Shown: positions 15,423 through 49,465 of the stretch, piece after piece
How positions within the stretch are numbered: the stretch's first letter is position 1
Layout: each line of letters starts with the position of its first letter
Virus record (IMG/VR): IMGVR_UViG_3300047585_000133
Coordinates: 1-64,000 of that record
Direction: 5' to 3' (one strand)
DNA length: 64,000 nucleotides
From: a virus
Translations under genes and position numbers: made by a program
The notes under the pieces: model-generated
What the model was told of the DNA's origin: nothing
The model's input: the letters and a program-made list of their open reading frames with translations, nothing else
The model's database searches: none

Positions 15423-17163
15423 CTAAAACCGGGAGTACGTCGAGGAAGGAGTAAGCCCCCACCTGGAACCCGTCGCCGGAAGTCACGCAGGCTGCCTCGA
15501 TCGCGAATGTTCCGGTAGATGTAAAGGCCACGGCCCCGTCGATGGTGACGACGTACACGTCCCCGCTGACCATCGTGATACCGAAAGTGGCGGCGCTCCC
15601 GGCTGCCTTCGCCCCGGCCGACCACGTATTAGCCCCTTCGGCTGCAACGAAACTGATCAGGCCGCCGGGCGATCCCGGGCCGGCCCACTGGAAGCCGAGG
15701 TCCCCGCCGTTCTGGCTGGCGACCACGTAGAGCTGCCCGTGGATCCGGTAAGTCCGCGCACCCACGGTGCTGGAGAAGACCGATCCGAAAGTGGTCGAGG
15801 TAATCGGCTGGGCGCTGGTGCTGACGAGGGAACGCCGCTGGGTGCTGTAGGCCTGCTCGTCGACCCCGTCTACCACCTGAAGGGTCCCGGCCGTCGTCGC
15901 GTAGACCGAAGCGGACCCGGACACCGCCGCCGGGGTGCCGCCGCCGGGCAGGACGATGCCTGTCTTGGTGATCTGGGAGAAGACCGCCCCGCCGAACTCG
16001 AAGACGATCTTGGCAGGAACGGTACTGTCGGCCGATTCGGAGAAGAGCTGGATCGCGGCGTCGTCGCCGCCTTCCTTGCCGGACGTCATGATCAGGCCGG
16101 CATACTCGTTGACGTCCCCGGCGTTGGTCACCGTGCCGAAGATCTGGCCGTTGAGGGTGGCGTGAGTCCGGCCGCCGGCTGTCAGCGCCAGAATGGCATC
16201 GCCGTCGGAGACGAGCAGTCCGGCGGAGGAGTTACCGCTCCCCCACACCCACAGGCCCTGCGCGTAGACGTTGCCCTCGGCGTCGATGCCGGAAGCGGCG
16301 GCTATCGAGGCGATCAGGTTGCCGGAAGCAGGAGTGCCTGAGTAGAAGAAGGAGCCGGCCGGGTTGATGACGAAGTCGGTGCCCTGGAAGACCGAGCCGG
16401 TGAAGGTGGCAGCATCGACGAAGGTGCCGTCGATGATCCCCGCGATGACGATCCCTGCCGCTATCTGCTCGGCCGTGATCGTGTTGGCGGCGATCAGCTC
16501 GGCGGTCACCGACCGGGCAGCGATCGCCTGGGTGCCCCACTGGTAGGGAGTCCACTCGACTCCGGTCCACTGGTTGAGCTGGTAACCGTCTTCGGCGTTG
16601 TACCACAGGTCCCCGTAAGAGGGATCTTCTGGTGCGGTGCCGGAGATGGTGGTGGTGACGCCGCCGATGTCGCTGGCAGTGAAGTTCACCTGGCTGGCGG
16701 CGATGTTCGCCTGAGCGGCGATCTGCGCGGCAGTGATCGCCTGGGGCGCAATGGCCTGGGACGAGAACTGGAGCGGTACCCAGGAGGTTCCGTTCCAGGT
16801 GGAGACGGAATTGCCCTCTGACGGGTTGATCCACACCTCGCCGACAGACGGGGCAGCCGGTGCGGTCGCGTTGACGATGATGCCGACGGCCTGGGCCGAG
16901 GGGAACTGCCCGGCTGAGGTCGCCACGACGGCGGAGAAGGTGTACTGTCCGGCGTCCGCCTGGGTAACCATCCAGGTTTCGCCGGGCTGCGGGAGCTGGC
17001 TCTTGCTCCGCTGGATCATCATCGGGACGGAGACCTGGGTGTTCTGCCGGTCCACGGCGACAGCGGTTTTCCCGTCCGGGCTGATCGCCTGGACGGTGAC
17101 CAGTTTGCTGGTGAACCCGACGGAGTTGGTGGACCCGTTGACCGCCTGGCGCGGCGCCGCCAT
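15423..17163 (-). CDS. Baseplate spike/minor tail protein; natural stop is out of frame (GTT TTA G)
   Basis: Start MAAPRQ at 17163; OB-fold-like N-terminus LPQPGETW; coding character ends at ...DVLPV, where TAG lies in the +1 frame. Confidence 0.7.
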
Positions 17164-21931: not shown

Positions 21932-22263
21932 GGGCTACCGGCCTAAACGGCAGGAAGATACTCCAAGTCATCGAGACGCACTGCCCGGTCCACTGCCCGG
22001 GTTGCCTGGAATGCCAGCATGGAGAAGCCGTGGGAGTCAGTAACCCGAAGCCGAGGAGCATATGGCACTTCACCTGCCCGGTCTGCAAGCGGGTGATCGC
22101 CGCCAGGGGAGGGATCCTCAAGTTCTGCCTGCACATGCCCTACGATCCGGGCAGGGCCCTCTTCACCGAGAAGGGACGGCCCTGCAAGACGTCCGGGAAG
22201 ACCCTCCGGGAAGCAGAGGTCCTGGCAGCAGAGATCGAGCAGCGCCGTAAGTACCAGCCTTGA
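21919..22263 (+). CDS. Cys-rich putative Zn-binding protein
   Basis: Several CxxC/CxxH motifs. Confidence 0.55.
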   Translation: MDSLRATGLNGRKILQVIETHCPVHCPGCLECQHGEAVGVSNPKPRSIWHFTCPVCKRVIAARGGILKFCLHMPYDPGRALFTEKGRPCKTSGKTLREAEVLAAEIEQRRKYQP

Positions 22264-26988: not shown

Positions 26989-27327
26989 TCAGCCGGAGAT
27001 TCTCTTCAGCTCGTCGTACTCGGCGACAATCCGCCCCGGGACGCGGCCCCGGTCCTTGACCTCGTAGCCGCGCTCCCGGGCGTAATCCCGGATTTCCGGC
27101 AGGTCCCGGCGGACGGTACGGCTGCGGCGCGTCCGGGCCGCCGGACCGGACTTCGGTGCCTTGCGGCCCTTCTCGACGAACAGCCGAAGCTCCTCCCGCA
27201 GGTTCCCCGCCTGCTCGTCACTGAGATCGATCTCGTAGTTCGTCCCGTCCAGGCCGAACTGCACAGTCTCAGAGGCCTCGCTTTCGTCGAGGTCGCTGAC
27301 CAGCTCGGTGACTAGCTTCTGTACCAC
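26989..27327 (-). CDS. lsr2: Lsr2 nucleoid-associated protein
   Basis: VQFGLDGTNYEIDL and IRDYARERGYEVKDRGRVP; GTG start after AGGAGG. Confidence 0.92.
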   Translation of the reverse strand: MVQKLVTELVSDLDESEASETVQFGLDGTNYEIDLSDEQAGNLREELRLFVEKGRKAPKSGPAARTRRSRTVRRDLPEIRDYARERGYEVKDRGRVPGRIVAEYDELKRISG

Positions 27328-27401: not shown

Positions 27402-27944
27402 CTAGTTGGTCAGGGTGCCCGCCACGTACTGGTTGGAGTTCAGCGGCAGGTAGTGGGTGTAGGCGAACGTGATGCCCTTGGTCACCGCGAGGGCCCCGAC
27501 CGTCACCGTCTCGCCGTCGTTGATGTCGACGACGGTGACGTTCTGGTACACCTTGCCGCGCCAGGCACTGGGATTGCTCTCCGTCCCCGGCGGCTTGATG
27601 ATCATCGACGCGGTGACGTAGTTCGGGTCGGCGGCCAGGGCGGTGAAGATGTCCACCATGTCCCAGGTGCCGGTCAGCCCGGCGAGCTGCCACCACACCG
27701 GCTGGCTCCACAGCTCCCGGATGGTGATCATCACCGTCCCGCCGGAGATCACACGGGACGTGGCGATCTCCACCGGGTGCTCGGCACCGATGGGCTGGAT
27801 AAAAACTGGTAAGGCTGTCCAACGTCAGAGAATGCTCTCTGCCCGCTGTCCTCCCACCCCTCGTAAACAGTAGGCGATCGGCTGCGAATTGTAACTAAGT
27901 ACCGTATAACCGCTGCCTACGACCCTTGCTTGGGTTGTTGCCAT
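27402..27944 (-). CDS. Tail tube protein, interrupted by two frame disruptions at UUA codons
   Basis: MATTQARVVGSGYTVL...IAYC / EGWEDSGQRAFSDVGQPYQF / IQPIGAEHPVEIATSRV...; downstream of sheath. Confidence 0.75.
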
Positions 27945-28068
27945 ACCAGGCACCACCTCCCCTCCACTACCGGGCGCTTCCGCGCAAGCCTGCGTCTCTA
28001 GGCCTTCTGGGGGCGCGATGGCTATGTCAATGCTGGCTACACTGATAATCTTGGATCATGGCCCAGGC

Positions 28069-28203
28069 ATGGATCGAGATCGCGCTGCACGGAGCGGGCT
28101 GGACCTCAGCGCGATCGGCGAGGACGGGCACGCCGTCGCCAACCTGCTGTGGAAGATCTCCGGGTACCTGAAGGGCCGGGCCGGCGGCCGGGAGAAATCA
28201 TGA
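28069..28203 (+). CDS. Hypothetical protein
   Basis: Short high-GC3 ORF; start uncertain. Confidence 0.4.
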   Translation: MDRDRAARSGLDLSAIGEDGHAVANLLWKISGYLKGRAGGREKS

Positions 28204-28454: not shown

Positions 28455-29207
28455 TCACAGACCAGTGACAGCCGAGGACTGACGCTCATCATCTTTAGAC
28501 AGTCGAAGCGCTGCCTGCTCGCACCACCGCTCATCAGACTCAATTCCGACCGCAGGCAGCCCGAGTTCCCTTGCGGCCAGCAGAGCAGACGCTGATCCCG
28601 CAAACGGGTCAAGCACCGGCAGGCCAGGCGGGGCAACCACGGACAGCAGGTCACGGAGCAGCGGAAGCGGCTTCTCGGTCGGGTGCGCCCCTCCCCGCAC
28701 CGGGGCGCAGCGAAGAACATTCCCCATGTCACGACGCTGCGGGGGAAGCGGGGAGCCGAGCGACATGTGCACGACGAACTCATGCTGATTACGGAAGACC
28801 GCGCCCATCCCGAACATCGTCTTGTCCCATACCAGGGTCGGGTGCTGGCGGAGGTCAGCGCTCTCCAGTGATGCGGCAAGGCTCGCCGCCATGCGCCAGT
28901 CGATAAAGCTGAGCACGTGACCGCCCTGGACGAGCAGCCTCCGCCACTGGAGCCCGCACTGCCGCATGAGCCAGGTAAATCCCTGGGTGCTCATGGCATC
29001 CCCGTGAATCCAGTCGCCGTCCCCTTGCGACCGGATCATTGACTTGCGAAGGCTGCGGGAGTTCTCCCTTCGCCCTCCGCTTGAGTAAGGAGGGTCGGCC
29101 AGGACCGCGCCGACAGTGCGAGGCTGCATTCCTTCCATGATTCCGAGGCAGTCTCCGTAATAAAGAGTAACCAGGTCATCACGGTAATACGGCTCCGGGA
29201 GCAGCAC
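28455..29207 (-). CDS. DNA N6-adenine/N4-cytosine methyltransferase (beta class)
   Basis: YYGDCL, ADPPY, HPTEKP and VLDPFAGS motifs. Confidence 0.9.
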   Translation of the reverse strand: MLLPEPYYRDDLVTLYYGDCLGIMEGMQPRTVGAVLADPPYSSGGRRENSRSLRKSMIRSQGDGDWIHGDAMSTQGFTWLMRQCGLQWRRLLVQGGHVLSFIDWRMAASLAASLESADLRQHPTLVWDKTMFGMGAVFRNQHEFVVHMSLGSPLPPQRRDMGNVLRCAPVRGGAHPTEKPLPLLRDLLSVVAPPGLPVLDPFAGSASALLAARELGLPAVGIESDERWCEQAALRLSKDDERQSSAVTGL

Positions 29208-29209
29208 GG

Positions 29210-30751
29210 CTAGCTGCCCGTCCCGGTCGCCGAGGCGTTCTGCTGCGACTGGATCGCCGTCAGCCCCCCGGACAGGTCGATCGACATCTGCACCGTGATG
29301 TAGTTCAGCGGCATCGCCGGCAGGTACGTGAACACCACCGTGATGATCGTCGGGTTGCCGCCCGGGTAGGCCTGCTGGGTCACCGTCAGGTTCTGGTAGG
29401 AGATGATCACGTTCCCCGTGACCGCCGCCTCCAGGATGCCCAGCACCGACTCCTGCACCGCGCTGACCGTGTTCGCGGTGATCGGCGACCCGATCAGGCC
29501 GCTGGACTGCAATCCCTGGCTGACCGCCACCAGCAGGGAATCCGCCTGGCGGACCACCGAGATCTCCTGGTGGTTGATCGCGCTCATGTCCGTCGTCAGG
29601 CCCTGCCGGCAGATCAGCGCCCCCGTGTAGTTCACCGCGCAGACACTCACCCCGTAAGCGGCAATCGAGTTCATGAACGCGTTGGTCATCGAACTGACCT
29701 CGGCCTGCGGCAGGCCCGCCGTTCCCCGGATCACCTGGTTGGTCGTCCCGGTGTTCACCGGCAGGGACGACAGGACGGCCCCCAGGGCTACCGCCAGGTA
29801 ACATCCGCTGGCCTGGAACGTCGTACTGGTCGCCGTGTTGTACAGCTGCACGATCTCCGGGTAGGCCAGCACCAGGCGCCGCGACGCGATAGCGGAGGCG
29901 AACGTCGGAACCGGGATATCGGACTCGCTGTAATTGCGCGGCAGCCCGAAGAACCCGATCCGGGGGAAACCGTCGTTGTAGGCGGTCACCATCGCGGTGT
30001 TCAGCGCCTGCGCCATCGACATCGCCTCCGCCGCCACCGTCCCCGATCCCGGGGTCAGGTCGTCGGTGAACACCGGCACCACGATCGTGCACGCCGCCGT
30101 GGTAGCGACCTTCGCGTAGGCGGCGGTGAACTGCTGCTCCAGCGAGCCGTCCGCCGGGTTGCAGGCCACCATGAGCAGGGTCGTCGCCCCGTTGGAGAAG
30201 GCGATCTGCGCGGCGCACGACAGCGGGTTGGCCACCTGGGAGGCGTTCACGGTCACGGGGACCGTCGACAGGAACGGCTGCCCGTAGGCGTTGATCACCG
30301 ACTGCTGGTCGGTGAAGACCTGCGGGGCGTAGTAGGTCGCGTCCGCGTAGTTGTAGGTGATAGCGACCTGCTGGCCGTCGGAAACATTCGGGCTGCCGCT
30401 GACCCGGACGATGGTTGCCGAGGCCAGGCCCGGGTTCCCCGACGGGCTGGCAACCACCGTCAGGGTGTAGTCCGTCCCCGGGGTCAGGATCGTCCCGGCC
30501 AGGGTGGTCACTACGGGAGCGGAGATTGCGGGCGGCCCGGATACGGCCGTAGTGAAAATCCCCGTGTAGGTCAGGGCGGTGGCGCTGGCGGCCGAGATGA
30601 TCAGCGACTGGATCGCGGTGCGGTAGCCGAGGGCCGGGCCGATCAGGGTGACGACCTGGGACGGCACCAGGGGAGTGACGACGACCGGGATGGAAGTGTC
30701 CTGAACGTACACCTGCGGAGGGGTGTACGACGTAAAGGATGGGATTGTCAC
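29210..30751 (-). CDS. Tail sheath protein
   Basis: YTPPQVYV N-terminus; RQGLTTD, EISVVRQAD and YLPAMPLNYITV C-terminus. Confidence 0.9.
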   Translation of the reverse strand: MTIPSFTSYTPPQVYVQDTSIPVVVTPLVPSQVVTLIGPALGYRTAIQSLIISAASATALTYTGIFTTAVSGPPAISAPVVTTLAGTILTPGTDYTLTVVASPSGNPGLASATIVRVSGSPNVSDGQQVAITYNYADATYYAPQVFTDQQSVINAYGQPFLSTVPVTVNASQVANPLSCAAQIAFSNGATTLLMVACNPADGSLEQQFTAAYAKVATTAACTIVVPVFTDDLTPGSGTVAAEAMSMAQALNTAMVTAYNDGFPRIGFFGLPRNYSESDIPVPTFASAIASRRLVLAYPEIVQLYNTATSTTFQASGCYLAVALGAVLSSLPVNTGTTNQVIRGTAGLPQAEVSSMTNAFMNSIAAYGVSVCAVNYTGALICRQGLTTDMSAINHQEISVVRQADSLLVAVSQGLQSSGLIGSPITANTVSAVQESVLGILEAAVTGNVIISYQNLTVTQQAYPGGNPTIITVVFTYLPAMPLNYITVQMSIDLSGGLTAIQSQQNASATGTGS

Positions 30752-34906: not shown

Positions 34907-34976
34907 TGCGAGTAGCCGCTGGGCGGTAGCCGGTCTCCAAAGCCGGCAAGCTGGGTTCGACTCCTGGTACTCGTGC
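34907..34976 (+). tRNA. tRNA-Trp(CCA), atypical D arm
   Basis: CCGGT-CTCCAAA-GCCGG; T loop TTCGACT. Confidence 0.75.
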
Positions 34977-35405
34977 TGGTCCGCGAGGACCTTGCCACCG
35001 GCTGACGGGCGAGAGCCCCGAGGACGGCAACCGGCTCGACTTTTCTCATCTCAACAGCGGAACACGATGCGGCAGGGTGCCAACCTGCCGCACGGTGACC
35101 AGCGGACTGGCCCCTGCCCCGGTATGGTGGCGGAGGAGATCTCCGTACGACCTTTACGGATGGTTCAGGGCACGAAACAAACGGGGCAGGAGCCAGCCTG
35201 CCGGTCACCCAGATTTCGGCGCGGTGAAAGACAATGCAGCTACTCCCGGGGAGCAGCGGCCGTTAAAGGCCGGGGACGTACCGTCAAGGATGGTTCCTGT
35301 ACCGGGCACCGCGCCAGCAAGACTCCCCTCCTCCCGGTGTGCTCACACCCGCCGGGACAAGGGAGCCGTGGGCCCGTCCCTGCTTGCGGGGTCGGGCTCC
35401 ACCAC

Positions 35406-35478
35406 GGGGCCTTGGCGCAGCTGGTAGCGCGTCTGCATGGCATGCAGAAGGTCAGGAGTTCGACTCTCCTAGGCTCCA
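35406..35478 (+). tRNA. tRNA-Ala(GGC)
   Basis: Cloverleaf, G3:U70. Confidence 0.95.
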
Positions 35479-35557
35479 CGAGGGGGCGGTGCGGGTTCGA
35501 ATCCTGCCCGGCGGGAGAAATCCCAACGGTAGCTCAATGGCAGAGCAGCCCCCGTCA
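35479..35557 (+). ncRNA. Permuted tRNA-like RNA (YrlA/Y-RNA-like topology)
   Basis: Order: T arm, loop-closed acceptor, D arm, enclosed by GGGGGC/GCCCCC. Confidence 0.7.
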
Positions 35558-35790
35558 GTTTGGGCAGGATAAACCGGGCGAAACGTAGATGATCCCGGTG
35601 GAGCGGGGACGGCAGGCCGGCGGAACATCGTGCCTGTGGTACTTGGTTGTCCTGGACCGGGAGGGTACCCCGGACGCAAACCTGGTAGGTGCCGTCGTGA
35701 AACACGGCCGTGAGTAGCGGCGGCAACTGCCCGGCGGGCGCCGCGAGCCCGTTAATAGGAAACCGGACCGAGGATTCCGGACGCGGACCT

Positions 35791-35865
35791 GGGCTGTTAG
35801 CTCACCGCAGGTAGAGCACTGCACCCGCAATGCAGAGGTACCCGGTTCGAGCCCGGGACGGTCCA
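35791..35865 (+). tRNA. tRNA-Ala(CGC)
   Basis: Cloverleaf, G3:U70, C33. Confidence 0.9.
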
Positions 35866-35989
35866 CGGGAGGAAGACGCAGGGTTCGATTCCATGCCCGG
35901 CCGCTTGGGAGGCCGGCGCTCATGCGAGTACGCGTTGCGGAAAGCCTGCGCCGGCCGCGTCCGGTACCTCAGGGCAGAGGACTCCGTCA
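35866..35989 (+). ncRNA. Second permuted tRNA-like RNA with an enlarged acceptor insertion
   Basis: T loop TTCGATT first; D arm CCTC-AGGGCA-GAGG last; closing GGAG/CTCC. Confidence 0.55.
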
Positions 35990-35990
35990 C

Positions 35991-36063
35991 GGGGAAGTAG
36001 CTCAGCTGGAAGAGCACCCGCCCTGCAAGCGGGATGTCAGGGATTCGAGTTCCCTCTTCTCCA
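35991..36063 (+). tRNA. tRNA-Ala(TGC)
   Basis: Cloverleaf, G3:U70, C33. Confidence 0.9.
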
Positions 36064-36114
36064 CGTCGGCCTCTGGAATCCCCGGGAGAATGATCTCCCG
36101 CCATGCCGGCTCCA

Positions 36115-36188
36115 CGGGATATTGCGTAGTGGTAGCGCGCCTGGTTTGGGACCAGGCGGCTGGGGTTCGATTCCCTGTATCCCGACCA
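36115..36188 (+). tRNA. tRNA-Pro(TGG)
   Basis: Cloverleaf with encoded CCA. Confidence 0.92.
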
Positions 36189-36434
36189 GTCGCCTGGAGC
36201 TGGCTCAAGCTCCCTGGTTTCCCCCGAGCAGGGAGCTGGTCCCGGAAGCACCGGGAGGGCGGCGTTAAGTCCGGTACACGGCTGCGGCGCACGGGACATT
36301 CCGGTTCGACTCCGGATCGCCGCAGTGCAGTAGGCCGCGTTGCCCCTAGCAAGCGGGCGCCGAAAAACCGCCTGGAGCGGCAGTAGCTTGCAGGTGACCG
36401 GGACGCGATCGCGACGTGAGCCCGGCACCGTCAA

Positions 36435-36508
36435 CGGAGCGTAGCTCAACTTGGCAGAGCACTCGGCTGGGGGCCGAGCGGTTGCGCGTTCAAATCGCGC
36501 CACTCCGA
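36435..36508 (+). tRNA. tRNA-Pro(GGG)
   Basis: CTCGG-CTGGGGG-CCGAG. Confidence 0.92.
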
Positions 36509-36584
36509 CGTGAGGGCCTAGGGCCGGGTAACCGGCTGGCGCGATATACGACCTAGGGAGCGGGAGCACTGGTACCCCGCATAT

Positions 36585-36659
36585 CTGGCTATGGCGCAGC
36601 TTGGCTAGCGCGCTGCCTTCGGGAGGCAGAGGTCCCCAGTTCAAATCTGGGTAGCCAGA
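36585..36659 (+). tRNA. tRNA-Pro(CGG)
   Basis: CTGCC-TTCGGGA-GGCAG. Confidence 0.95.
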
Positions 36660-36879
36660 CGAGACCCAAAGGCCACGGGTCTGCTGGAACGCGGGTTCGC
36701 TACCTGCGTTGGATGCAAGGTGTAGGGCGCACAGGGGCGCGCGGACGCCCAGAGCCGGGGGAAACCCGGTAGCTGGGTGGTCACGGGCCTCGGGGCCGGG
36801 TTCAACTCCCGGGGCATCGCTGGATCTCAAAGGCCCAAGTGAGGCGGAAGATAGGGCCACGCCCTGCCGGAGATCTTAT

Positions 36880-36953
36880 GGTCGCTTAGCTCAGTTGGAA
36901 CGAGCGCCTGATTGAAACCCAGGAGGACCCCCGTTCGGCTCGGGGAGTGACCA
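36880..36953 (+). tRNA. tRNA-Phe(GAA)
   Basis: Cloverleaf; A:C mismatch at 31:39. Confidence 0.88.
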
Positions 36954-37203
36954 CGGTGACGGAGTACTACGTCACTTGGGCCCTGTGGTAAGCGCACCAC
37001 AGGGAAAGCGGTTGGCAGGCTACGCCAGCTCCTCCGGGGGCGAGCCGGGTTCAAAACCCGGGACCGTGCGATGCCGTGACCCTGTCGATCGCAGGATCAC
37101 CACGGCAGCCGGGAAAGAACTTTCCCGGCGCGAAGGTTGCCGGTAACCCCTGCGTTAAAGGGAGGCAGTTCCGTTGCAACGGACTGCCGTGGAACTGGAC
37201 CAT

Positions 37204-37274
37204 GCGGATGTCGTCCAACGGCAGGACAGCAGCCTTCCAAGCTGCTGATGCGGGTTCGAGTCCCGTCTTCCGCT
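37204..37274 (+). tRNA. tRNA-Gly(TCC)
   Basis: GCAGC-CTTCCAA-GCTGC. Confidence 0.92.
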
Positions 37275-37471
37275 CTACGGCACGACGCCCCGCCTGGCTC
37301 CGCCCAAATGGTACCCAGGGGGATACGGCCGGGAGAGTAGCGCTCCTCCCGGTAAGCCGGCCTGTTGCAACGGGCCGGACTTCGTGCCGCCCGGGTGATC
37401 CTGCCGGAGCCCCTGTGAGCCCTGCCGCAAGCGGGGCAATACCAGGCTCCCCGGCGGGACTCCGGGACCCT

Positions 37472-37544
37472 GCGCCGCTAACTCAACTGGCAGAGTACCG
37501 TCCTCTTAAGTCGGGAGTTGGGGGTTCAAGTCCCTCGCGGCGCA
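37472..37544 (+). tRNA. tRNA-Lys(CTT)
   Basis: Cloverleaf; U:U mismatch in the anticodon stem. Confidence 0.9.
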
Positions 37545-37622
37545 CTGAAGGAATGCTGAAGGCCAAACCCGGGGCTGGTGCCGACGAAGAGGCCTCCTGC
37601 CACCAGCAGCATTCCTTCTCAC

Positions 37623-37696
37623 GGGCAAGTAGCAGAACGGCATATGCGGCGGATTCAAGCTCCGCGCTCTTACGGGTTCGAATCCCGTCTTGCCTA
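37623..37696 (+). tRNA. tRNA-Leu(CAA), short variable arm
   Basis: GCGGA-TTCAAGC-TCCGC. Confidence 0.85.
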
Positions 37697-37776
37697 CGTG
37701 CCGGGTCGCTCCCGGCGGAGCAGGGGATCGTGCACAGGACCCGTCCTGCCCAGTGGACCGGGGAAGTGCTCACCAT

Positions 37777-37848
37777 TGGAGTATGGCGTAATCGGCAGCG
37801 CGCCGGGTTCTGGTCCCGGCGGTCTAGGTTCGAGTCCTGGTACTCCAG
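37777..37848 (+). tRNA. tRNA-Gln(CTG)
   Basis: CCGGG-TTCTGGT-CCCGG; U1:A72. Confidence 0.95.
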
Positions 37849-37916
37849 CGTGATCGTCGGAGTTTCGTTGGCAGGATCCCAGTCCTGCACCTGGGCAACT
37901 TCGCCGGCGGTCTTAT

Positions 37917-37989
37917 GCCCCTGTAGCTCAGACGGAAGAGCAGTGCACCCGTAATGCACAGGCCAGCGGTTCGAAGCCGCTCGGGGGCT
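37917..37989 (+). tRNA. tRNA-Thr(CGT)
   Basis: GTGCA-CCCGTAA-TGCAC; C33. Confidence 0.9.
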
Positions 37990-38189
37990 CGTAGTGCAAC
38001 ACCGGAGACCTCGGTCTCGCATGCACGTCCGGGTAGCGCAAGGTGGAACCGTCCGGCGGTTAGAAGGAGCGAGGTACAGGCGGGGCTCCCGCGACGGCTA
38101 GGGATGAGGCCGTCACCACGATCGTGATCCTGGTCAGGCCCAGGTGTGCGAGTGGCCATAGGCATGAGGGCCGCCGCCAGGATCACCAT

Positions 38190-38274
38190 GTCCGTGTGGC
38201 GAAATGGCATACGCGCCAGCTTGAGGTGCTGGTGCCCCGCGAGGGGTGTGAGGGTTCGAGTCCCTCTTCGGACA
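38190..38274 (+). tRNA. tRNA-Leu(GAG)
   Basis: Class II with long variable arm. Confidence 0.92.
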
Positions 38275-38449
38275 CATGGTGGGAGATCCCGGTGACGGGC
38301 TAACCGGGGCGGATTGCGTCCAGCGGTCTGCTAGCTCAGGGCCGCTTCTGGACAGAAGAGCCCCACCTTACACGCCTCTGGCTCCAACGAGCGGGCGTCC
38401 CCTGTACGGACACCAGCCCGGGGTGGCACCGGGTGGAGGCTCCATTCGA

Positions 38450-38520
38450 TCCGGGATCGTTTAACGGCAGGACGCGGTATTTTGAGTGCCGCTGTGTTGG
38501 TTCGAGTCCAGCTCCCGGAA
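38450..38520 (+). tRNA. tRNA-Gln(TTG)
   Basis: CGGTA-TTTTGAG-TGCCG. Confidence 0.9.
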
Positions 38521-38532
38521 CGAAAGTCACAT

Positions 38533-38605
38533 GCCCGGATAGCTCAGTTGGCAGAGCATGCGCATGGTAAGCGCAAGGTCATCGGTTCAAATCCGTTTTC
38601 GGGCT
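38533..38605 (+). tRNA. tRNA-Thr(GGT)
   Basis: TGCGC-ATGGTAA-GCGCA. Confidence 0.92.
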
Positions 38606-38617
38606 CGCATTAAATAT

Positions 38618-38689
38618 GTCGGCGTAACTCAGCGGTAGAGTGCGGCGTTGCCAACGCCGTTGTCGCGGGTCCGAATCCCGTCGCCGACT
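38618..38689 (+). tRNA. tRNA-Gly(GCC)
   Basis: CGGCG-TTGCCAA-CGCCG; T loop TCCGAAT. Confidence 0.9.
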
Positions 38690-38911
38690 CTATGGGGTAC
38701 CAGATCTCTGCTGGCCCAAAGCCCGAGCCATGGCACAGAGCATCCTCCGAGGCCGGACGCGGCCGACGGGGACCCCATTTCAGGCAGGTACAGGATCAGT
38801 ATGGTCTGGCAAAGCGGCGGAAGTCGCCATTCTCCGGAGAACGCAACCTGACCTGACTCCCTATCCGACTCCCGGGACGGATCCAGACAAGGGGGATAAG
38901 TCCCGGGGCAT

Positions 38912-38983
38912 GCGACCGTAGTGTCAAAGGCAGCACACGACCTTCCCAAGGTCGGTGAGCCGGTTCGAATCCGGTCGGTCGCT
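38912..38983 (+). tRNA. tRNA-Gly(CCC)
   Basis: CGACC-TTCCCAA-GGTCG. Confidence 0.92.
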
Positions 38984-39100
38984 CACCTGACACCAGCATC
39001 AGGCTCCGCGAGCCGCCTGCCCCAAGGTTTCCGGGCAGATGAGACTACGGTTGCCCAAAGGTATCTTCAAGCGGACTCCGGGCTGGCGGGGTCCGTCCAT

Positions 39101-39185
39101 GGGCGTGTGGTGGAACGGCAGACACGCTGGCCTCAGGTGCCAGTGGCCCGGAAGGGCCGTGAGGGTTCGAATCCCTCTTCGCTCA
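39101..39185 (+). tRNA. tRNA-Leu(CAG)
   Basis: Class II with long variable arm. Confidence 0.92.
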
Positions 39186-39288
39186 CAAAGCCGCTGGCGA
39201 CGCGGCGGCCTGGCATGGCGGGATCAGCATTTCCAGGATGCCCGCCTGACCATTTACCCCAAGCCTGGACCCGGGGGAGCGTCGTAAT

Positions 39289-39373
39289 GGAGAGTGAACC
39301 GGACGGGCGTCCGGGCTTCGCTGCTAACGAATGCGCGCTGTGAAGGCGTGGGTTTCGAGTACTCCGCTCTCCG
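39289..39373 (+). tRNA. tRNA-Ser(GCT), 8/4 acceptor/T-stem type
   Basis: Acceptor GGAGAGTG/CGCTCTCC (8 bp); T stem GGGT/ACTC (4 bp); G73. Confidence 0.8.
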
Positions 39374-39806
39374 CTCGACGGGCTGTAAGGAACGGGTTGT
39401 TCCGGCCGGCAAGACGGGTTCGAGTCCCGTACAGTCCACGCGGGGTTCGATTCCCCGCTACGGGTGCTGCGACCCGTGCCAGGCTCCGGCCGCGAAGCGC
39501 TCCCAGGGGCGACCGCAGATTATGGAGAGGTCGCCTAGTCTGGCCTATGGCGCCGCGTCGGAAGCGCGGTCGGGGTAACCCTCGCGAGTTCGAATCTCGC
39601 CCTCTCTGCCACTCGCCGGCAGCCATGTCCAGAGTGAGCACCTCCTGCTGGCCGGGGGTCGTGAAGATGATCTCCACGCCGAACTCCCCGTGCTTGCCCT
39701 CCACCATGAAGAGGGCCCTCTTGATCATGGTCACCACAGGGAGCGCAGCCGCGTCTGGATTCTTCAGCCCCCGGACCGTCACGGTCACCTTTATCTCGCC
39801 TTCCAC
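39324..39806 (-). CDS. Hypothetical protein inserted antisense in the tRNA array
   Basis: Coding-like GC3 only over 39612-39806; the frame then runs antisense through tRNA-Ser genes. Confidence 0.45.
   Translation of the reverse strand: MEGEIKVTVTVRGLKNPDAAALPVVTMIKRALFMVEGKHGEFGVEIIFTTPGQQEVLTLDMAAGEWQRGRDSNSRGLPRPRFRRGAIGQTRRPLHNLRSPLGALRGRSLARVAAPVAGNRTPRGLYGTRTRLAGRNNPFLTARRAESGVLETHAFTARIR
39380..39438 (+). ncRNA. Anticodon-less tRNA-Ala-like RNA
   Basis: Acceptor GGGCTGT/ACAGTCC-A with G3:U70; perfect T arm; no anticodon arm. Confidence 0.7.
39524..39611 (+). tRNA. tRNA-Ser(GGA)
   Basis: Class II; C33; encoded CCA. Confidence 0.92.
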
Positions 39807-39821
39807 CCCGGAAGGCTATCT

Positions 39822-39904
39822 GGCGAGGTCGCACAGTGGCCTAGTGCGCTTGCTTCGAAAGCAAGTGGGGGCGACCCCCGTGAGTTCGAATCTCACCCTC
39901 GCTG
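39822..39904 (+). tRNA. tRNA-Ser(CGA)
   Basis: CTTGC-TTCGAAA-GCAAG; class II. Confidence 0.92.
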
Positions 39905-39988
39905 CTCTGTCCCGGCCGCTCACTTCGCGTGCTTCGAGGTTTCGTGAGCCTCCCTCTTTTAGGTCGCACACGAGCCGGGACAGGTCAT

Positions 39989-40071
39989 GGCGGGGTCGCC
40001 TAGCGGCCTAGGGCGCCGGCTTTGAAACCCGGTGAGGGGAACCTCCGTGGGTTCGAATCCCACCTCCGCTG
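39989..40071 (+). tRNA. tRNA-Ser(TGA)
   Basis: Class II; C:C at 31:39. Confidence 0.88.
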
Positions 40072-40269
40072 CTAGACGCCCGTGCGGGTGCGCCTGGTGT
40101 TCCAGTTGCCCGCGCCCCAGCCGGACCCGAACCCGGCGGCGGCGAGCGCGAAGAAGGCGAGCCCGATGGCGATGATCCCGACGACGACGGTCAGCGAGAT
40201 GCTGTGGACGCCGACGATCGCGATGATCGCGGCGACGATGAAGGCGAGGACGGCAAGGCCGTAGGTCAT
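40072..40269 (-). CDS. Small two-TM membrane protein
   Basis: Two hydrophobic helices, basic tail, RBS AAGGAG. Confidence 0.75.
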   Translation of the reverse strand: MTYGLAVLAFIVAAIIAIVGVHSISLTVVVGIIAIGLAFFALAAAGFGSGWGAGNWNTRRTRTGV

Positions 40270-40328
40270 GACATGCTCCTTCTACTGGAGGAGCATGCGC
40301 TCCCCGGTGCTTCCGGGGCGCGCACCAC

Positions 40329-40402
40329 GGGCGTGTAACTCAGATGGTCAGAGTACTTCCCTGATAAGGAAGAAGGCGCTGGTTCAAGTCCAGCCTCGCC
40401 CA
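40329..40402 (+). tRNA. tRNA-Ile(GAT)
   Basis: CTTCC-CTGATAA-GGAAG. Confidence 0.92.
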
Positions 40403-40472
40403 CCGGCACGCAGCGATCATCTGAGCCAGGACGTTCCGGAGACACGGCTGTACCGGGCGCTGCGAGCCTCAC

Positions 40473-40545
40473 GGCGGTGTAGCTCAGTCGGCAGAGCACC
40501 CGACTCATGATCGGGTTGCCGGTGGTTCGATCCCACCTACCGCTA
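40473..40545 (+). tRNA. tRNA-Met(CAT), elongator type
   Basis: CCCGA-CTCATGA-TCGGG; unusual G37. Confidence 0.88.
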
Positions 40546-40547
40546 CC

Positions 40548-40623
40548 GGGGGCGTATCCCCTCTGCCTTATAAGCAGTCGAAAGGGTAACCGGTGCAAGC
40601 GGGTTCAAGCCCCGCCGCCCCTA
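40548..40623 (+). tRNA. Non-canonical tRNA-Ile(TAT)-like RNA without a normal D arm
   Basis: Acceptor GGGGGCG/CGCCCCT-A; CTGC-CTTATAA-GCAG; T arm GCGGG-TTCAAGC-CCCGC. Confidence 0.7.
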
Positions 40624-40624
40624 C

Positions 40625-40695
40625 GCCTCTCTAGCACAATGGAATGCAGCGGGCTTTTACCCCGTGGAGTCAGGGTTCAAGTCCCTGGGGAGGCA
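40625..40695 (+). tRNA. tRNA-Lys(TTT)
   Basis: GCGGG-CTTTTAC-CCCGT. Confidence 0.85.
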
Positions 40696-40699
40696 CTGA

Positions 40700-40773
40700 G
40701 CGCCAGTAGCTCAGCGGAACAGAGCGGCTGGCTTCTATCCAGCTGGTCGGGGGTTCGATTCCCTCCTGGCGTA
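40700..40773 (+). tRNA. tRNA-Arg(TCT)
   Basis: GCTGG-CTTCTAT-CCAGC. Confidence 0.92.
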
Positions 40774-40857
40774 CGTGAACGGCCGCGCTTAAAGACGGCC
40801 CCGTGGACCCGCAGCTAGCGGCGGGGACTCAGAGACTCGTCGGTCAAGCAGTCCTAT

Positions 40858-40929
40858 GGTCCTATCGTCTAGCGGTCAGGACGGCTGCTTCTCAGGCAGC
40901 TGACGCGGGTTCGACTCCCGCTGGGACTA
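40858..40929 (+). tRNA. tRNA-Glu(CTC)
   Basis: GCTGC-TTCTCAG-GCAGC. Confidence 0.92.
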
Positions 40930-41109
40930 CGAACACGGGTAAGCGCGCTTGGCCTTTACCGGACCGATCATCCGGGTAACGGCCTGGAGACCCTGAAGGG
41001 CGAAGCCTCGGCTATGAGGGCTTGTTATGATCCTCCTGTGAAGCAGGGAAATCGCCCTGGGACCGGCGGTACATGGCACGCCCGGGGACCCGCCTGCAAC
41101 GCGCACCAA

Positions 41110-41181
41110 GCCCCCATCGTCTATTGGTTAAGATCGCGGCCTTTCAAGTCGCGGAACGGGGTTCGAATCCCCGTGGGGGAG
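41110..41181 (+). tRNA. tRNA-Glu(TTC)
   Basis: GCGGC-CTTTCAA-GTCGC; 1:72 mismatch. Confidence 0.88.
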
Positions 41182-41212
41182 CAAGGCCGGGACTGTTATC
41201 CTGGTCGTGCGA

Positions 41213-41287
41213 CGCGGAGTGGGGAAGTTCGGTGTTCCCGCTGGCCTCATAAGCCAGAGATCGCTGGTTCAAATCCAGCCTCCGCTA
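41213..41287 (+). tRNA. tRNA-fMet(CAT)-like
   Basis: C1:U72 mismatch as in initiators; anticodon stem CTGGC/GCCAG lacks the third G-C pair. Confidence 0.85.
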
Positions 41288-41567
41288 CGAGAGAAGCAGG
41301 TGCTAGCGCTCTTACGTCCGGACGTACTGGGGGCCTGTTCGCTAGCACCGGACCGTGACCGGCTGCCCGGCCGGCTCTCGCAACGGGCAGGCCCATCCGG
41401 ATGGCAGTACGGGTGTCAGCAGACCCCCTCGCGCTGCGGGCCGAAGCGGGGGACCAGAATCTTCTAGTGCGAGGAGAAATCATGCGAGAAAAAGACCCGG
41501 CTCCGTGCGGCGCCTGCGGGCAGGTACACGACGGGCCGTGCCCTGGCCAGGGCGGCTGAACGAACGA

Positions 41568-41641
41568 TCTCCGGTAGCTCAATCGGCAGCAGCAGCGTCC
41601 TGTTAAGGCGATGGTTCCAGGTTCGAGTCCTGGTCGGAGAG
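41568..41641 (+). tRNA. tRNA-Asn(GTT)
   Basis: Loop CTGTTAA; U1:A72; G73. Confidence 0.88.
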
Positions 41642-41718
41642 CTGTGCGGTCCTGCCCGCGCCGACACCACCCGGGATGCACGGGGAGGGAAGCACCCGGC
41701 GGGGTGCAGCAGGATCAT

Positions 41719-41792
41719 GGTTGTGCAGAGCAGACGGAGTGCTCGCCTCCCTGTCAAGGAGGAGATCACGGGTTCGAGTCCCGTCACGACCG
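41719..41792 (+). tRNA. tRNA-Asp(GTC)
   Basis: CCTCC-CTGTCAA-GGAGG; G73. Confidence 0.92.
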
Positions 41793-42006
41793 CTGAGGGG
41801 AAGGTCATTACCGGGCGGCAGGACACCTTCCCCTTCAGTCCAGCCCGGCGCGGCGCCGGAGTTCGCGGTGGGCAACCTGGCTGACGTTCAGGATGGCGCG
41901 CCAGCCGCCGTACCACTTGCCGACGGCAAGTCCGACAAGTAGACCGACGACCAGGCCTGCGAGGAACATACCTTCAACGGTACCTCCGGCCGAAGTGCCT
42001 GACTAC

Positions 42007-42081
42007 GGGTGTTTAGCTCAGCGGGAGAGCGCTGTCTCGACAAGGCAGAGGCCGCAGGTTCGATCCCTGCACCACCCACCA
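42007..42081 (+). tRNA. tRNA-Val(GAC)
   Basis: C33; encoded CCA. Confidence 0.9.
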
Positions 42082-42209
42082 GCAGCATGGGCTCTACCCG
42101 GTGATCTCCAGGGGCCGGCAGTTTCGTTCTAGACTCCGGGGCGGCTGGCGGAAGGTCCGAAGGCGGTAATCCTGGTTAAGCCGCCCGAATAGCCCATGCT
42201 GCTGTACAT

Positions 42210-42283
42210 GCCCTCATAGCTCAGCGGACAAGAGCGGCGCGCTACGGACGCGCAGGACGGGAGTTCGAGTCTCTCTGGGGGTA
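42210..42283 (+). tRNA. tRNA-Arg(ACG)
   Basis: GCGCG-CTACGGA-CGCGC. Confidence 0.92.
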
Positions 42284-42450
42284 CGCGAAGGTGGTGTAAG
42301 AGGCCGGCTCCGGCCGGGTCCGTGCGCACGGGCCCGGCCGGACAGGGGACCTCAAACGGAAGGAGGCGGAACCATGGATAACCGCGCTCCGGACAGCACT
42401 CCCCGGTTCCACCCGGGGCAGTCCTGGCAGAATCCAGGCCTTCGTGCCAC

Positions 42451-42522
42451 GGGCAATTAGCTCAGCGGGAGAGCGCTTCGTTCACACCGAAGAAGTCGGC
42501 GGTTCGAGTCCGTCATTGCCTA
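42451..42522 (+). tRNA. tRNA-Val(CAC)
   Basis: CTTCG-TTCACAC-CGAAG. Confidence 0.93.
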
Positions 42523-42524
42523 CC

Positions 42525-42600
42525 GGGTCGTGATCCATATGGCTGAGGAAACGGTTTGTGAGACCGTTATTGACGGGTTCGAATCCCGTACGACCCTCCA
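42525..42600 (+). tRNA. tRNA-His(GTG), atypical
   Basis: ACGGT-TTGTGAG-ACCGT; U73 and no encoded G-1; encoded CCA. Confidence 0.8.
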
Positions 42601-42601
42601 T

Positions 42602-42686
42602 GGCAGGTTACTCAAGCGGCAACGAGGGCGGCCTGTAAAGCCGCTGGCCCAGTCCTGCGCTGGTTCGAGTCCAGCACCTGTCACCA
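42602..42686 (+). tRNA. tRNA-Tyr(GTA)
   Basis: Class II; encoded CCA. Confidence 0.92.
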
Positions 42687-42687
42687 T

Positions 42688-42761
42688 GCACCTGTAGCTC
42701 AGCGGACAGAGCGCCGGTTTCCGGAACCGGGTTGCCGGGGGTTCGAGTCCCTCCAGGTGCA
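42688..42761 (+). tRNA. tRNA-Arg(CCG)
   Basis: CCGGT-TTCCGGA-ACCGG. Confidence 0.92.
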
Positions 42762-42915
42762 CGTGCATCCCCAGGGCCGCCGGCTAACCATTGGCCGGTT
42801 ACAACAGCCCCCTGCTCAGTCCTCATGGACATACATGGCCGGATGAAGGGAGTCCTGGTACCAGGCGGCACCTCCAAGTGCCCGGTACCGGCGGATAGGC
42901 CCGGGGATGCACCCT

Positions 42916-42987
42916 GACGGGATGGCCGAGCGGCTCAGGCACGCCCCTGCAAAGGGCGATACACGGGTTCGAATCCCGTTTCCGTCT
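42916..42987 (+). tRNA. tRNA-Cys(GCA)
   Basis: CGCCC-CTGCAAA-GGGCG; U73. Confidence 0.93.
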
Positions 42988-43022
42988 CGGGGACCTGGTC
43001 CGGTGCACCGACGCAGATGCTA

Positions 43023-43095
43023 AGCCCGGTAGCTCAGCGGACAGAGCCGCCGTTTCCTAAACGGAAGACCGAGAGTTCGAATCTCTCCCGGGCCG
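43023..43095 (+). tRNA. tRNA-Arg(CCT)
   Basis: Loop TTCCTAA; canonical D and T arms. Confidence 0.88.
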
Positions 43096-43135
43096 CCTGA
43101 ACGTGTTCCGCTGCTGAGCTGCGCCGGGAAGGGTC

Positions 43136-49244: not shown

Positions 49245-49465
49245 TGACCTGCCAGTGCGACGTCATCCCGGAGCGGCCGTGCCCGGCGCAGGTCACCCAG
49301 GAGGACCTGCTGTGCGACACCTGCCGGAAAGCCAGGAGACCCGGCATGATCCACGCCGCCTCCACGATCTTCGGCGGGAGCATCGTGCGGACCTCGCACC
49401 TGGCCATCGACGCAAGGGTGTTCGCCCCGGAAGGATTACAGGCGGCAGCGGGGGAGGACGCATGA
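49244..49465 (+). CDS. Small Zn-finger protein, paralog of 48652-48861
   Basis: TCQC...C...TQEDLLCDTCR. Confidence 0.6.
   Translation: MTCQCDVIPERPCPAQVTQEDLLCDTCRKARRPGMIHAASTIFGGSIVRTSHLAIDARVFAPEGLQAAAGEDA

Follow-up and report, generated by a model that had tools for sequence, protein, structure and literature searches.

How does an uncultured soil phage make its tail tube when the only gene for it is interrupted by two frame jumps? The question is raised by a stretch of 64,000 nucleotides (hereafter the window), the first 64 kb of the 120,290-base metagenomic virus record IMGVR_UViG_3300047585_000133, which is linear and rated 76% complete. On its minus strand lies a tail tube gene, the single one in the whole 120-kb record, whose coding sequence continues only after an insert of four bases and again after one of two, each opening with an in-frame TTA codon. 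Comparison with related genes leads us to an answer to which we give a probability of about 0.7: ribosomes would hop at starved UUA codons within a tube gene that is intact in function, and the gaps they cross would be footprints of a cassette encoding an HNH homing endonuclease.

Reading frame of the tube gene

Read from the ATG at 27944–27942 (minus strand), the first frame gives 26 codons ending ...IAYC, meets TTA as its next codon and, if unshifted, stops at TGA 27827–27825 after 39 codons. In the +1 frame the sequence goes on as YEGWEDSGQRAFSDVGQPYQF until a second TTA, at 27802–27800; decoding of this UUA as leucine leads to a stop 17 codons on. The third piece opens IQPIGAEHP... and ends at the stop codon 27404–27402 (Table 1). 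TTA is thus the next in-frame codon at both breaks. At the second, a TTT take-off codon (27805–27803) is paired with a TTT landing codon (27803–27801); at the first, the triplet preceding resumption is TAC, which matches TGT at two of three positions. The earlier note on this DNA had located both breaks and had described the first landing codon as only partly matched; a re-reading of the minus strand in three pieces found its coordinates and its reading of both breaks, the partial match included, to be correct. A point absent from that note is that pieces 1 and 3 share one frame, the extra bases summing to six (4 + 2).

Reality of the inserts and selection on the gene

A search of 5.8 billion proteins yielded 302 candidates; 285 of them are relatives at E ≤0.001, with identities reaching 94%, and 18 were fetched, 16 being full-length. 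All 16 full-length proteins are contiguous across both break points and show no length variation at either: the first junction reads IAYC-EGW, with variants IAFC, IMFC and IAFL on one side and EGL, EGV and EAV on the other, and the second reads QF-IQP or QF-IHP. Because the relatives are contiguous there (as aligned with our own aligner), the window carries four extra bases past TGT and two extra T past TTT.

The extra bases might be assembly errors, as was recognized from the start, or they might be dealt with at the nucleic acid level, by transcriptional slippage on TTTTT or by excision from mRNA. TTTTT is, indeed, a short homopolymer. Two assemblers agree, however: in the independent Logan assembly of the probable source run, a single 9722-nt contig covers 27400–28000 with 0 differences and 0 gaps, both inserts being reproduced, and relatives' contigs from other runs are without exactly the four bases and the two bases. 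This check was made on contigs rather than raw reads, so that minor variants could have passed unseen. Moreover, inserts headed by TTA, 2–16 nt long and not homopolymeric, occur in 16 distinct sequences from many samples, and we know of no process that excises 4–16 nt from bacterial mRNA. An artefact, or removal of the inserts from RNA, is scarcely credible on these grounds.

The piece that is out of frame is conserved as protein. Over codons 27–46 the window differs from 13 close relatives by 5–13 synonymous and 0 non-synonymous changes, and when the 16 insert carriers described below are compared with their nearest insert-free relatives, non-synonymous divergence is 0.064 per codon in the 5′ part and 0.073 in the 3′ part. 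These comparisons support purifying selection on all three pieces, so that a full-length product may be made. Translation from an internal GTG at 27773 was set aside, the N-terminal 46 codons being under the same purifying selection as the remainder.

A dead gene, put out of action by recent indels in a phage that is itself defective or in decay, would suit a first insert that is poorly matched and found in no other sequence, and would suit the linear, incomplete record. It does not suit a record with no other tube gene, two indels that both begin with TTA and sum to exactly six nucleotides, an out-of-frame piece free of non-synonymous change, or the occurrence of like inserts in records that are rated 100% complete and have terminal repeats (G001 and G003). 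Decay would also be expected to scatter random frameshifts elsewhere, a possibility raised in the earlier note; scans of the genome turned up no other internal frame break. We regard recent death of the gene as very unlikely.

A family of inserts headed by TTA

An intact protein was aligned to each of 111 related loci with a home-made frameshift-aware aligner, giving, with the window, 112 loci and 85 distinct gene sequences. Alignment of relatives in search of TTA-containing insertions, as had been suggested, was productive: 16 of the 85 sequences carry 20 frame-breaking or stop-bearing inserts, 2–16 nt long and at seven sites, all within codons 11–46 of about 175. Three follow Ser11 (14–16 nt), two Tyr13 (4 nt), one Thr14 (7 nt), one Cys26 (4 nt, in the window), five Trp29 (7–8 nt), two Gln45 (8 nt) and six Phe46 (2 nt, the window included).

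TTA accounts for 0.22% of the trinucleotides of this genome, whose GC content is 67%, yet it is the first in-frame codon in 20/20 inserts versus 0/5 ordinary in-frame indels of the gene family. The landing triplet can be read by the take-off tRNA in 14 of the 20 (8 of 14 inserts of at least 4 nt, and all six two-base slides), the cognate pairs being TCT to TCT or TCC, TAT to TAC, TGG to TGG, CAG to CAG, and TTT to TTT; five further inserts, the window's TGT to TAC among them, match at two of three positions, and one matches poorly. The arrangement TTT[TT]ATC seen at the second window site is present in six distinct sequences (the window, L081, L087, L097, L098 and L099), while an insert after codon 26, the first site, occurs in no other of the 85. 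Normal decoding of UUA would lead to a stop within 3–36 codons in 19 of the 20 inserts. Taken across the family, the pattern is the signature of peptidyl-tRNA take-off and landing, not of random damage or single-step shifting. It bears out, at both window sites and in the whole set of inserts, the proposal that two recoding events are needed, each at an in-frame UUA, and with the six copies of TTT[TT]ATC it supports a +2 move of tRNA-Phe from UUU to UUU as the second of them.

Viewed in isolation, the window could be explained by plain single-step shifts, +1 at UGU UUA C and −1 at UUU UUA, which would make the tube protein two residues longer. As regards frame, a 4-nt insert is equivalent to +1 and a 2-nt insert to −1; the first site has no well-matched landing codon for a hop; and for the published UUA-headed gaps in terminase genes, sequence alone did not let the authors rule out +1 shifts (Antonov et al. 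2023, PMC10732093). On the other hand, junction length is invariant in the relatives, and at the second site a −1 slip would put tRNA-Phe on GUU whereas a +2 move keeps it on UUU. Classical frameshift features are likewise missing, the first site (TGT TTA C) offering no +1 re-pairing option and the second (G TTT TTA) neither having the form X XXY YYZ nor lying in structure more stable than shuffled sequence. Elsewhere in the family, nine of the 20 inserts start TTAG or TTAA, with a stop in the +1 frame, and the in-frame 15-nt insert of L004 contains TAG, so that neither a plain +1 shift nor read-through would rescue these genes. Cognate landing codons are the rule, as in L083 and L087, whose identical TTAC insert lands TAT on TAC. 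Single-step shifting is therefore improbable, and hopping remains the preferred account of how the inserts are passed.

All 16 carriers belong to a single clade that holds 33 of the tree's 80 sequences; with the seven sites summed, their distribution takes at least 18 changes. Comparative evidence thus points to repeated origin of the inserts within the clade.

Two smaller points concern the inserts as such. All four genes with two inserts (L069, 14 + 7; L083, 4 + 8; L087, 4 + 2; and the window, 4 + 2) have insert lengths summing to a multiple of three, which independent hops do not require and which has a chance of ~2% as estimated from the observed length classes. Quadruplet decoding of TTAC was set aside, as it fails for inserts of 2, 7, 8 and 14–16 nt.

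UUA as a proposed stall codon

In crude gene sets from five genomes of the clade, in-frame TTA occurs 4, 3, 8, 1 and 3 times per 33,811–50,864 codons, and 12 of these 19 occurrences are within the last ten codons of an open reading frame (ORF). The two in-frame TTAs left over in the crude gene set of this genome, at window positions 49436–49438 (+) and at genome position 110268 (+, outside the window), stand 9 codons and 1 codon before the stops of small ORFs.

The tRNA array of the window has no tRNA-Leu(UAA), as the earlier note had said; its view that the array is otherwise near-complete does not hold, Leu(UAG), Val(UAC), Thr(UGU) and Ser(GCU) being missing as well by ARAGORN. Across eight large arrays (33–41 tRNAs), four from phages with inserts and four from phages without, tRNA-Leu(UAA) was found in none, and Leu(UAG) and Val(UAC) are also absent throughout. 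Content is uneven among related phages: G002, G003 and G008 (147–166 kb) have 0, 2 and 3 tRNA genes, as against 33–41 in the eight others. ARAGORN also reports a tRNA with anticodon CTA ('Pyl') in two relatives, L118 (G011:54000-62500) and one of L122/L123 (G008), which could be amber-suppressor-like.

The scarcity of TTA and the want of a phage tRNA for it are indirect signs that charged tRNA-Leu(UAA) may be limiting in the host. With no phage tRNA for it and essentially no use elsewhere, UUA would make the ribosome wait once it enters the A site, whereupon the P-site peptidyl-tRNA would let go and re-pair a few bases downstream. At the first site tRNA-Cys would move from UGU across 4 nt to an imperfect UAC, and at the second tRNA-Phe would move from UUU by 2 nt to UUU; translation would then resume and give a tube protein of normal length. 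Ribosomes that read UUA as leucine instead would run into a stop 13 or 17 codons on.

HNH genes beside the tube gene

Of the 65 insert-free sequences whose spacer could be measured, 56 have the sheath gene directly adjoining the tube gene (−15 to +88 nt). The spacer is 269–2144 nt in all 13 measurable carriers versus 9 of the 65 insert-free sequences (Fisher p 2e-9), and in the window it is 1268 nt. Carrier spacers contain an ORF on the opposite strand, and nine of ten tested match PHROG HNH-endonuclease families with E from 1e-15 to 1e-31; in Pfam, the ten spacer ORFs gave HNH_3 below cut-off, HTH_38 above cut-off in five, and AP2 matches to two below cut-off. An HNH gene or a remnant of one lies directly upstream of the tube gene, on the opposite strand, in 11 of the 16 carriers.

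The kind of HNH gene goes with the site of the insert. Type A accompanies Trp29 inserts (5/5, one a remnant), type B accompanies Ser11 inserts (3/3), and type C (HNH-AP2) accompanies inserts after Tyr13, Gln45 and Phe46 (3/3, one a remnant). An HNH gene is also found upstream in 8 of 69 insert-free sequences, and the six of these eight that are in the tree all fall outside the carriers' clade.

The 5′ end of the tube gene has a history of its own. L003 and L059 are 93% identical over codons 2–46 and 85% over codons 60–165, and downstream each has another nearest neighbour, at 95–97%. Type A carriers share a 5′ segment (79–93% identity) and have different nearest neighbours downstream. Synonymous change in the 5′ part relative to the 3′ part is 2.2 times in carriers and 1.3 times in controls, and GC content at third codon positions (GC3) in the 5′ part is lower than in the nearest insert-free relative in 16/16 carriers; in the window tube gene it is 0.58 for codons 2–46 versus 0.97 downstream. 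This is the pattern to be expected if the HNH element and flanking coding sequence move together between genomes.

Spacers at L015, L055, L098 and L099 are 606–928 nt long and 70–72% GC, and they show neither an HNH match nor a convincing ORF. The 2-nt insert is present in L098 and L099; L015 and L055 are insert-free.

Possible traces of a cassette in the window

No HNH gene of types A–C was found anywhere in the 120-kb record, and tblastn with whole HNH proteins gave nothing significant in the window. The 148 nt upstream of the tube start are, by blastn, 74% identical (E 5e-18) to the corresponding part of L083, which has an intact type C HNH gene. From 28058 (+), within an ORF at 28058–28171 (+), about 12 codons resemble the start of the L083 HNH gene (MAQAWIEIALHG versus MAEDYVEVPLHG). 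The window's pair of inserts, 4 + 2 nt, also resembles those of the type C loci L083 (4 + 8) and L087 (4 + 2). Most of the spacer is filled by a DNA methylase gene (Table 1) that has no tblastn match at this place in L002–L112; relatives have an HNH gene or nothing there. This methylase might be cargo that replaced the nuclease. Short as these similarities are, we read the window as a cassette whose nuclease gene has probably been lost and whose gaps have been kept.

The sequence of events would then be as follows. A free-standing HNH homing-endonuclease cassette would once have sat between the sheath and tube genes and left the gaps. The target of the endonuclease in its own genome is most likely spoilt by the gaps and by the dense synonymous recoding that affects the first ~46 codons; this protection of carrier DNA is proposed by analogy with T4 MobA. 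To survive in an essential gene, a gap would need to be headed by a starved codon. The window would since have lost its endonuclease gene, of which a short remnant is left while the gaps persist.

The earlier note had drawn another conclusion from the same UUA codons: a purpose-built double switch of the bldA type, with UUA sites selected so that tube is made only when host tRNA-Leu(UAA) is scarce, coupling virion assembly to host development. The same logic has been proposed in print for phage phiHau3 (PMC10732093). A stop follows soon after UUA in the window, as in nearly all the inserts of the family, and none of the eight large arrays supplies tRNA-Leu(UAA) although other rare A-ending codons have readers there. 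Insert-free relatives, however, are also without tRNA-Leu(UAA) (4/4), and about half of the clade (17 of 33 tree sequences) is insert-free. The inserts come and go among close relatives and follow HNH cassettes by type, which fits the footprint of a selfish element better. The phages look like lytic myoviruses with terminal repeats, so that the lysis-lysogeny logic of phiHau3 does not apply, and there is no sign that the host is Streptomyces, a genus without a member among the 80 bacterial relatives kept for the phage's Lsr2 protein. The switch is thus not supported in the form proposed, the HNH link giving another reason for the gaps, and we think it improbable. The two readings do not exclude each other, but the switch is not needed.

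Inserts in other genes

The five-genome comparison brought up two further inserts of the same form, CAA[TTAGCAA]TAC in a baseplate-J-like gene of G001 and CTC[TT]ACC in a PHROG 2786 gene of G002. A first genome-wide scan for TTA was uninformative, its threshold missing even the known sites; a second returned 109 places, mostly out-of-frame TTA within ordinary genes, and recovered the second tube-gene site with no new clear case.

A wider proposition may be framed from these data, tentatively and at slightly less than even odds: that in a clade of soil actinophages UUA has become effectively an unassigned stall codon, and that free-standing HNH homing endonucleases carry UUA-headed gaps of 2–16 nt into the 5′ ends, conserved as these are, of tube and baseplate genes essential to the virion, which would destroy their own cleavage sites at almost no cost in protein.

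Points weighing against hopping and a nuclease origin

Several observations count against the explanation that we favour. The whole case is built on comparing metagenomic assemblies, and the gene sets and aligner are home-made. Locus searches used peptide patterns spanning the Phe46 and Gln45 sites, so that insert frequencies are biased, and the sequences are related, so that p-values overstate independence. The first window site is the weakest case of the family, the sole insert at its position and one whose landing triplet UAC mismatches tRNA-Cys at its middle base; and the frame could also be regained in the window by single-step shifts, +1 at the first site (adding a Tyr) and −1 at the second (adding a Phe). 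RNA folding of 27770–27910 (minus strand) gave a stability no better than that of shuffles (z 0.02). As the tube protein is needed in hundreds of copies, two serial recodings look costly unless they are efficient.

The nuclease link has weak points too. An HNH ORF is missing upstream in five of the 16 carriers, including the window, and eight insert-free sequences carry HNH genes, so that a gap is not required for carrying one. For the window itself, the suggested link depends on the 148-nt similarity and the ~12 codons described above, and the HNH cleavage site in the tube gene is putative. Three frame junctions without TTA, at ~21150 in G001, ~105860 in G002 and ~89010 in G003, lie in poorly conserved stretches; we take them for divergence or noise, and they could be real frameshifts or assembly errors.

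Relation to known systems

Programmed bypassing is known from T4 gene 60 and from yeast mitochondria. Work on hungry codons in E. coli by Weiss, Gallant and colleagues is said to have described how, with the A site vacant, P-site tRNA slides by +2, +5 or +6 or hops. A slide or hop of P-site tRNA is likewise the mechanism invoked here; the E. coli events are low-level and belong to laboratory constructs under starvation, whereas here such an event is proposed as the normal route to a major virion protein. The original mobA work is reportedly that of Bonocora et al. 2011.

The published precedent for UUA bypassing in Streptomyces phage terminases, to which the earlier note had appealed, exists. 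Gaps headed by UUA were found in 3 of 100 terminase genes examined, those of Streptomyces phage phiHau3 and two prophages (Antonov et al. 2023, PMC10732093), in work building on Smith et al. 2013, its reference 45; bypass in these three genes is a proposal with partial experimental support. As in phiHau3, the frame-breaking insert opens with an in-frame UUA and its flanks are contiguous in relatives, the unshifted frame soon reaches a stop, the phage otherwise avoids UUA, two gaps may occur per gene, and a hop via peptidyl-tRNA re-pairing is proposed. A landing codon cognate to the take-off tRNA, which would be expected of a phiHau3-type gap, is present at the second window site and in 14/20 inserts of the family; at the first window site the match extends to two of three positions. 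The published gaps are in terminase genes only, measure 10 or 7 nt and come from temperate R4-like phages and from prophages of Streptomyces; a stem-loop plus internal Shine-Dalgarno signal is proposed for them, and they are explained as a lysis-lysogeny sensor. Unlike these, the gaps described here are in the tail tube gene (and in baseplate genes of relatives), measure 2–16 nt, occupy seven sites, have no evident RNA structure and are linked to HNH genes. The words 'tail' and 'HNH' have 0 occurrences each in PMC10732093, and a search of full-text literature gave, among the matches listed, no paper on UUA gaps in tail genes or on a homing-endonuclease link in actinophages.

The T4 system offers the closer parallel for origin. 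In T4, MobA, an HNH enzyme, makes up a single mobile element with the gap of gene 60; this gap protects its carrier from nicking, and some phages have kept it after losing the nuclease (bioRxiv 10.1101/2022.08.31.505936). The tube-gene gaps are like that of gene 60 in being non-coding gaps in an essential gene, which in relatives of the window adjoins a free-standing HNH homing-endonuclease gene (bioRxiv 10.1101/2022.08.31.505936), and in their repeated acquisition among close relatives, the recoding of flanking coding sequence, and decay of the nuclease while the gap stays. The T4 gap is 50 nt long; its GGA codons are matched, its take-off has both a UAG and a stem-loop, and there is a nascent-peptide signal. 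It always lies at the same place in a single gene and splits that gene as well. By contrast, the gaps here measure 2–16 nt and start at a starved sense codon, several HNH families each have their own sites, and no gene is split; a 50-nt gap, a take-off stop and a take-off stem-loop are absent, the fold having z 0.02 as noted above. The tube gaps therefore work like the T4 mobA/gene 60 cassette in origin and like phiHau3 in reading, and by the stricter features belong to neither.

Twenty natural gaps of 2–16 nt at seven sites, with take-off and landing pairs from perfect to imperfect, make a comparative series on what a ribosome needs in order to hop; if the reading is right, dozens of natural short-gap bypass sites with varied pairs may be expected. 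The homing-endonuclease link gives a testable reason for UUA gaps other than the published idea of a host-state sensor and, if true, would add to introns and inteins a third means by which a homing element could immunise the essential coding sequence that it targets. There is also a practical side. Gene callers truncate such essential genes (several relatives are on record as fragments of 104–119 aa), and breaks of this kind in high-GC phage genomes are not to be read as pseudogenes or assembly errors.

Identity of the gene, the phage and its host

The third piece matches PHROG 2756, 'virion structural protein' (E 3.2e-22), and protein relatives of 172–179 aa are up to 94% identical. An intact homologue, P0001, is 35% identical to gp112 of Rhodococcus phage E3, which is annotated as 'tail tube protein' and comes directly after gp111, the sheath. 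Structure prediction was less informative: two AlphaFold (AF2) models of the tube protein are weak (pLDDT 51.5 and 60.3), the first being too poor for a structure search. The second, itself a weak model, has as its best BFVD match 'Tail tube protein [Mycobacterium phage Spud]' (E 5e-10, TM 0.57/0.63), and its matches in the PDB, Hcp and tube proteins, had E values no better than 3.7e-3. Searching PDB sequences with a profile gave nothing relevant, and blastn of the tube-gene region against 50,697 phage records gave no match. We accept the tail-tube label, chiefly from synteny and sequence.

Phages of the clade are roughly 160 kb and myovirus-like, with related records of 147–166 kb. Among cultured phages, the closest relatives have hosts in Rhodococcus, Gordonia and Mycobacterium and are ≤36% identical. 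The gene that comes directly after the tube gene, at 26992–27327 (−), is an Lsr2 gene in which Pfam recognizes the Lsr2 dimerisation domain and DNA-binding domain; its bacterial relatives are ≤51% identical and spread across many actinobacterial genera. The host is an actinobacterium; neither Lsr2 nor the cultured relatives point to one genus.

Table 1. Tube gene pieces, inserts and neighbouring features in the window
Feature	Position	Strand	Remarks
Tube gene piece 1, codons 1–26 (MATTQARVVGSGYTVLSYNSQPIAYC)	27867..27944	−	Take-off codon TGT (codon 26) at 27869–27867
Insert 1, TTAC (4 extra bases)	27863..27866	−	In-frame TTA at 27866–27864
TGA closing the first frame if TTA is decoded normally	27825..27827	−	13 codons past TTA
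Tube gene piece 2, codons 27–46 (EGWEDSGQRAFSDVGQPYQF)	27803..27862	−	+1 frame
Insert 2, 2 extra T within the TTTTT run	27801..27802	−	In-frame TTA at 27802–27800
Tube gene piece 3, codons 47–178 and stop (132 codons)	27402..27800	−	Same frame as piece 1
Region upstream of the tube gene	27945..28092		Homologous to the type C HNH cassette boundary of L083
N6/N4 DNA methylase gene	28455..29207	−	Pfam N6_N4_Mtase, E 1.8e-19; fills most of the 1268-nt spacer
Tail sheath gene	29213..30751	−	PHROG 2839, tail sheath, E 2.9e-42
Array of 39 tRNA genes	34908..43097	+	ARAGORN; Leu-CAA, Leu-GAG and Leu-CAG present, no Leu-UAA

TTA at the ends of two other genes

Two further TTA codons in the window stand at the ends of other genes. 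A spike-like gene starting at 17163 (−) runs to ...FLDVLPV and is followed by GTT TTA G at 15424–15426, where a TAG lies one base out of frame. Past 15426 the original frame stays open for 767 codons, to 13123, through what resembles a non-coding frame of a gp25-like gene and then a baseplate-J-like ORF. The site could be a 1-nt insert that makes TTA ahead of the stop; the genes corresponding to it in five relatives are not homologous and have ordinary stops.

At 22248–22250 (−), a TTA comes directly after the natural C-terminus (...AWAHEEAQGWY) of a transglycosylase-like protein, where the PHROG 12661 profile ends. Of five relatives, one was matched by a query around 22250, and that match was confined to sequence upstream of the TTA. 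Past this codon the frame runs for 36 codons, and the sequence TAC TTA CGG has the TAC[TTAC] shape of a tube-gene insert.

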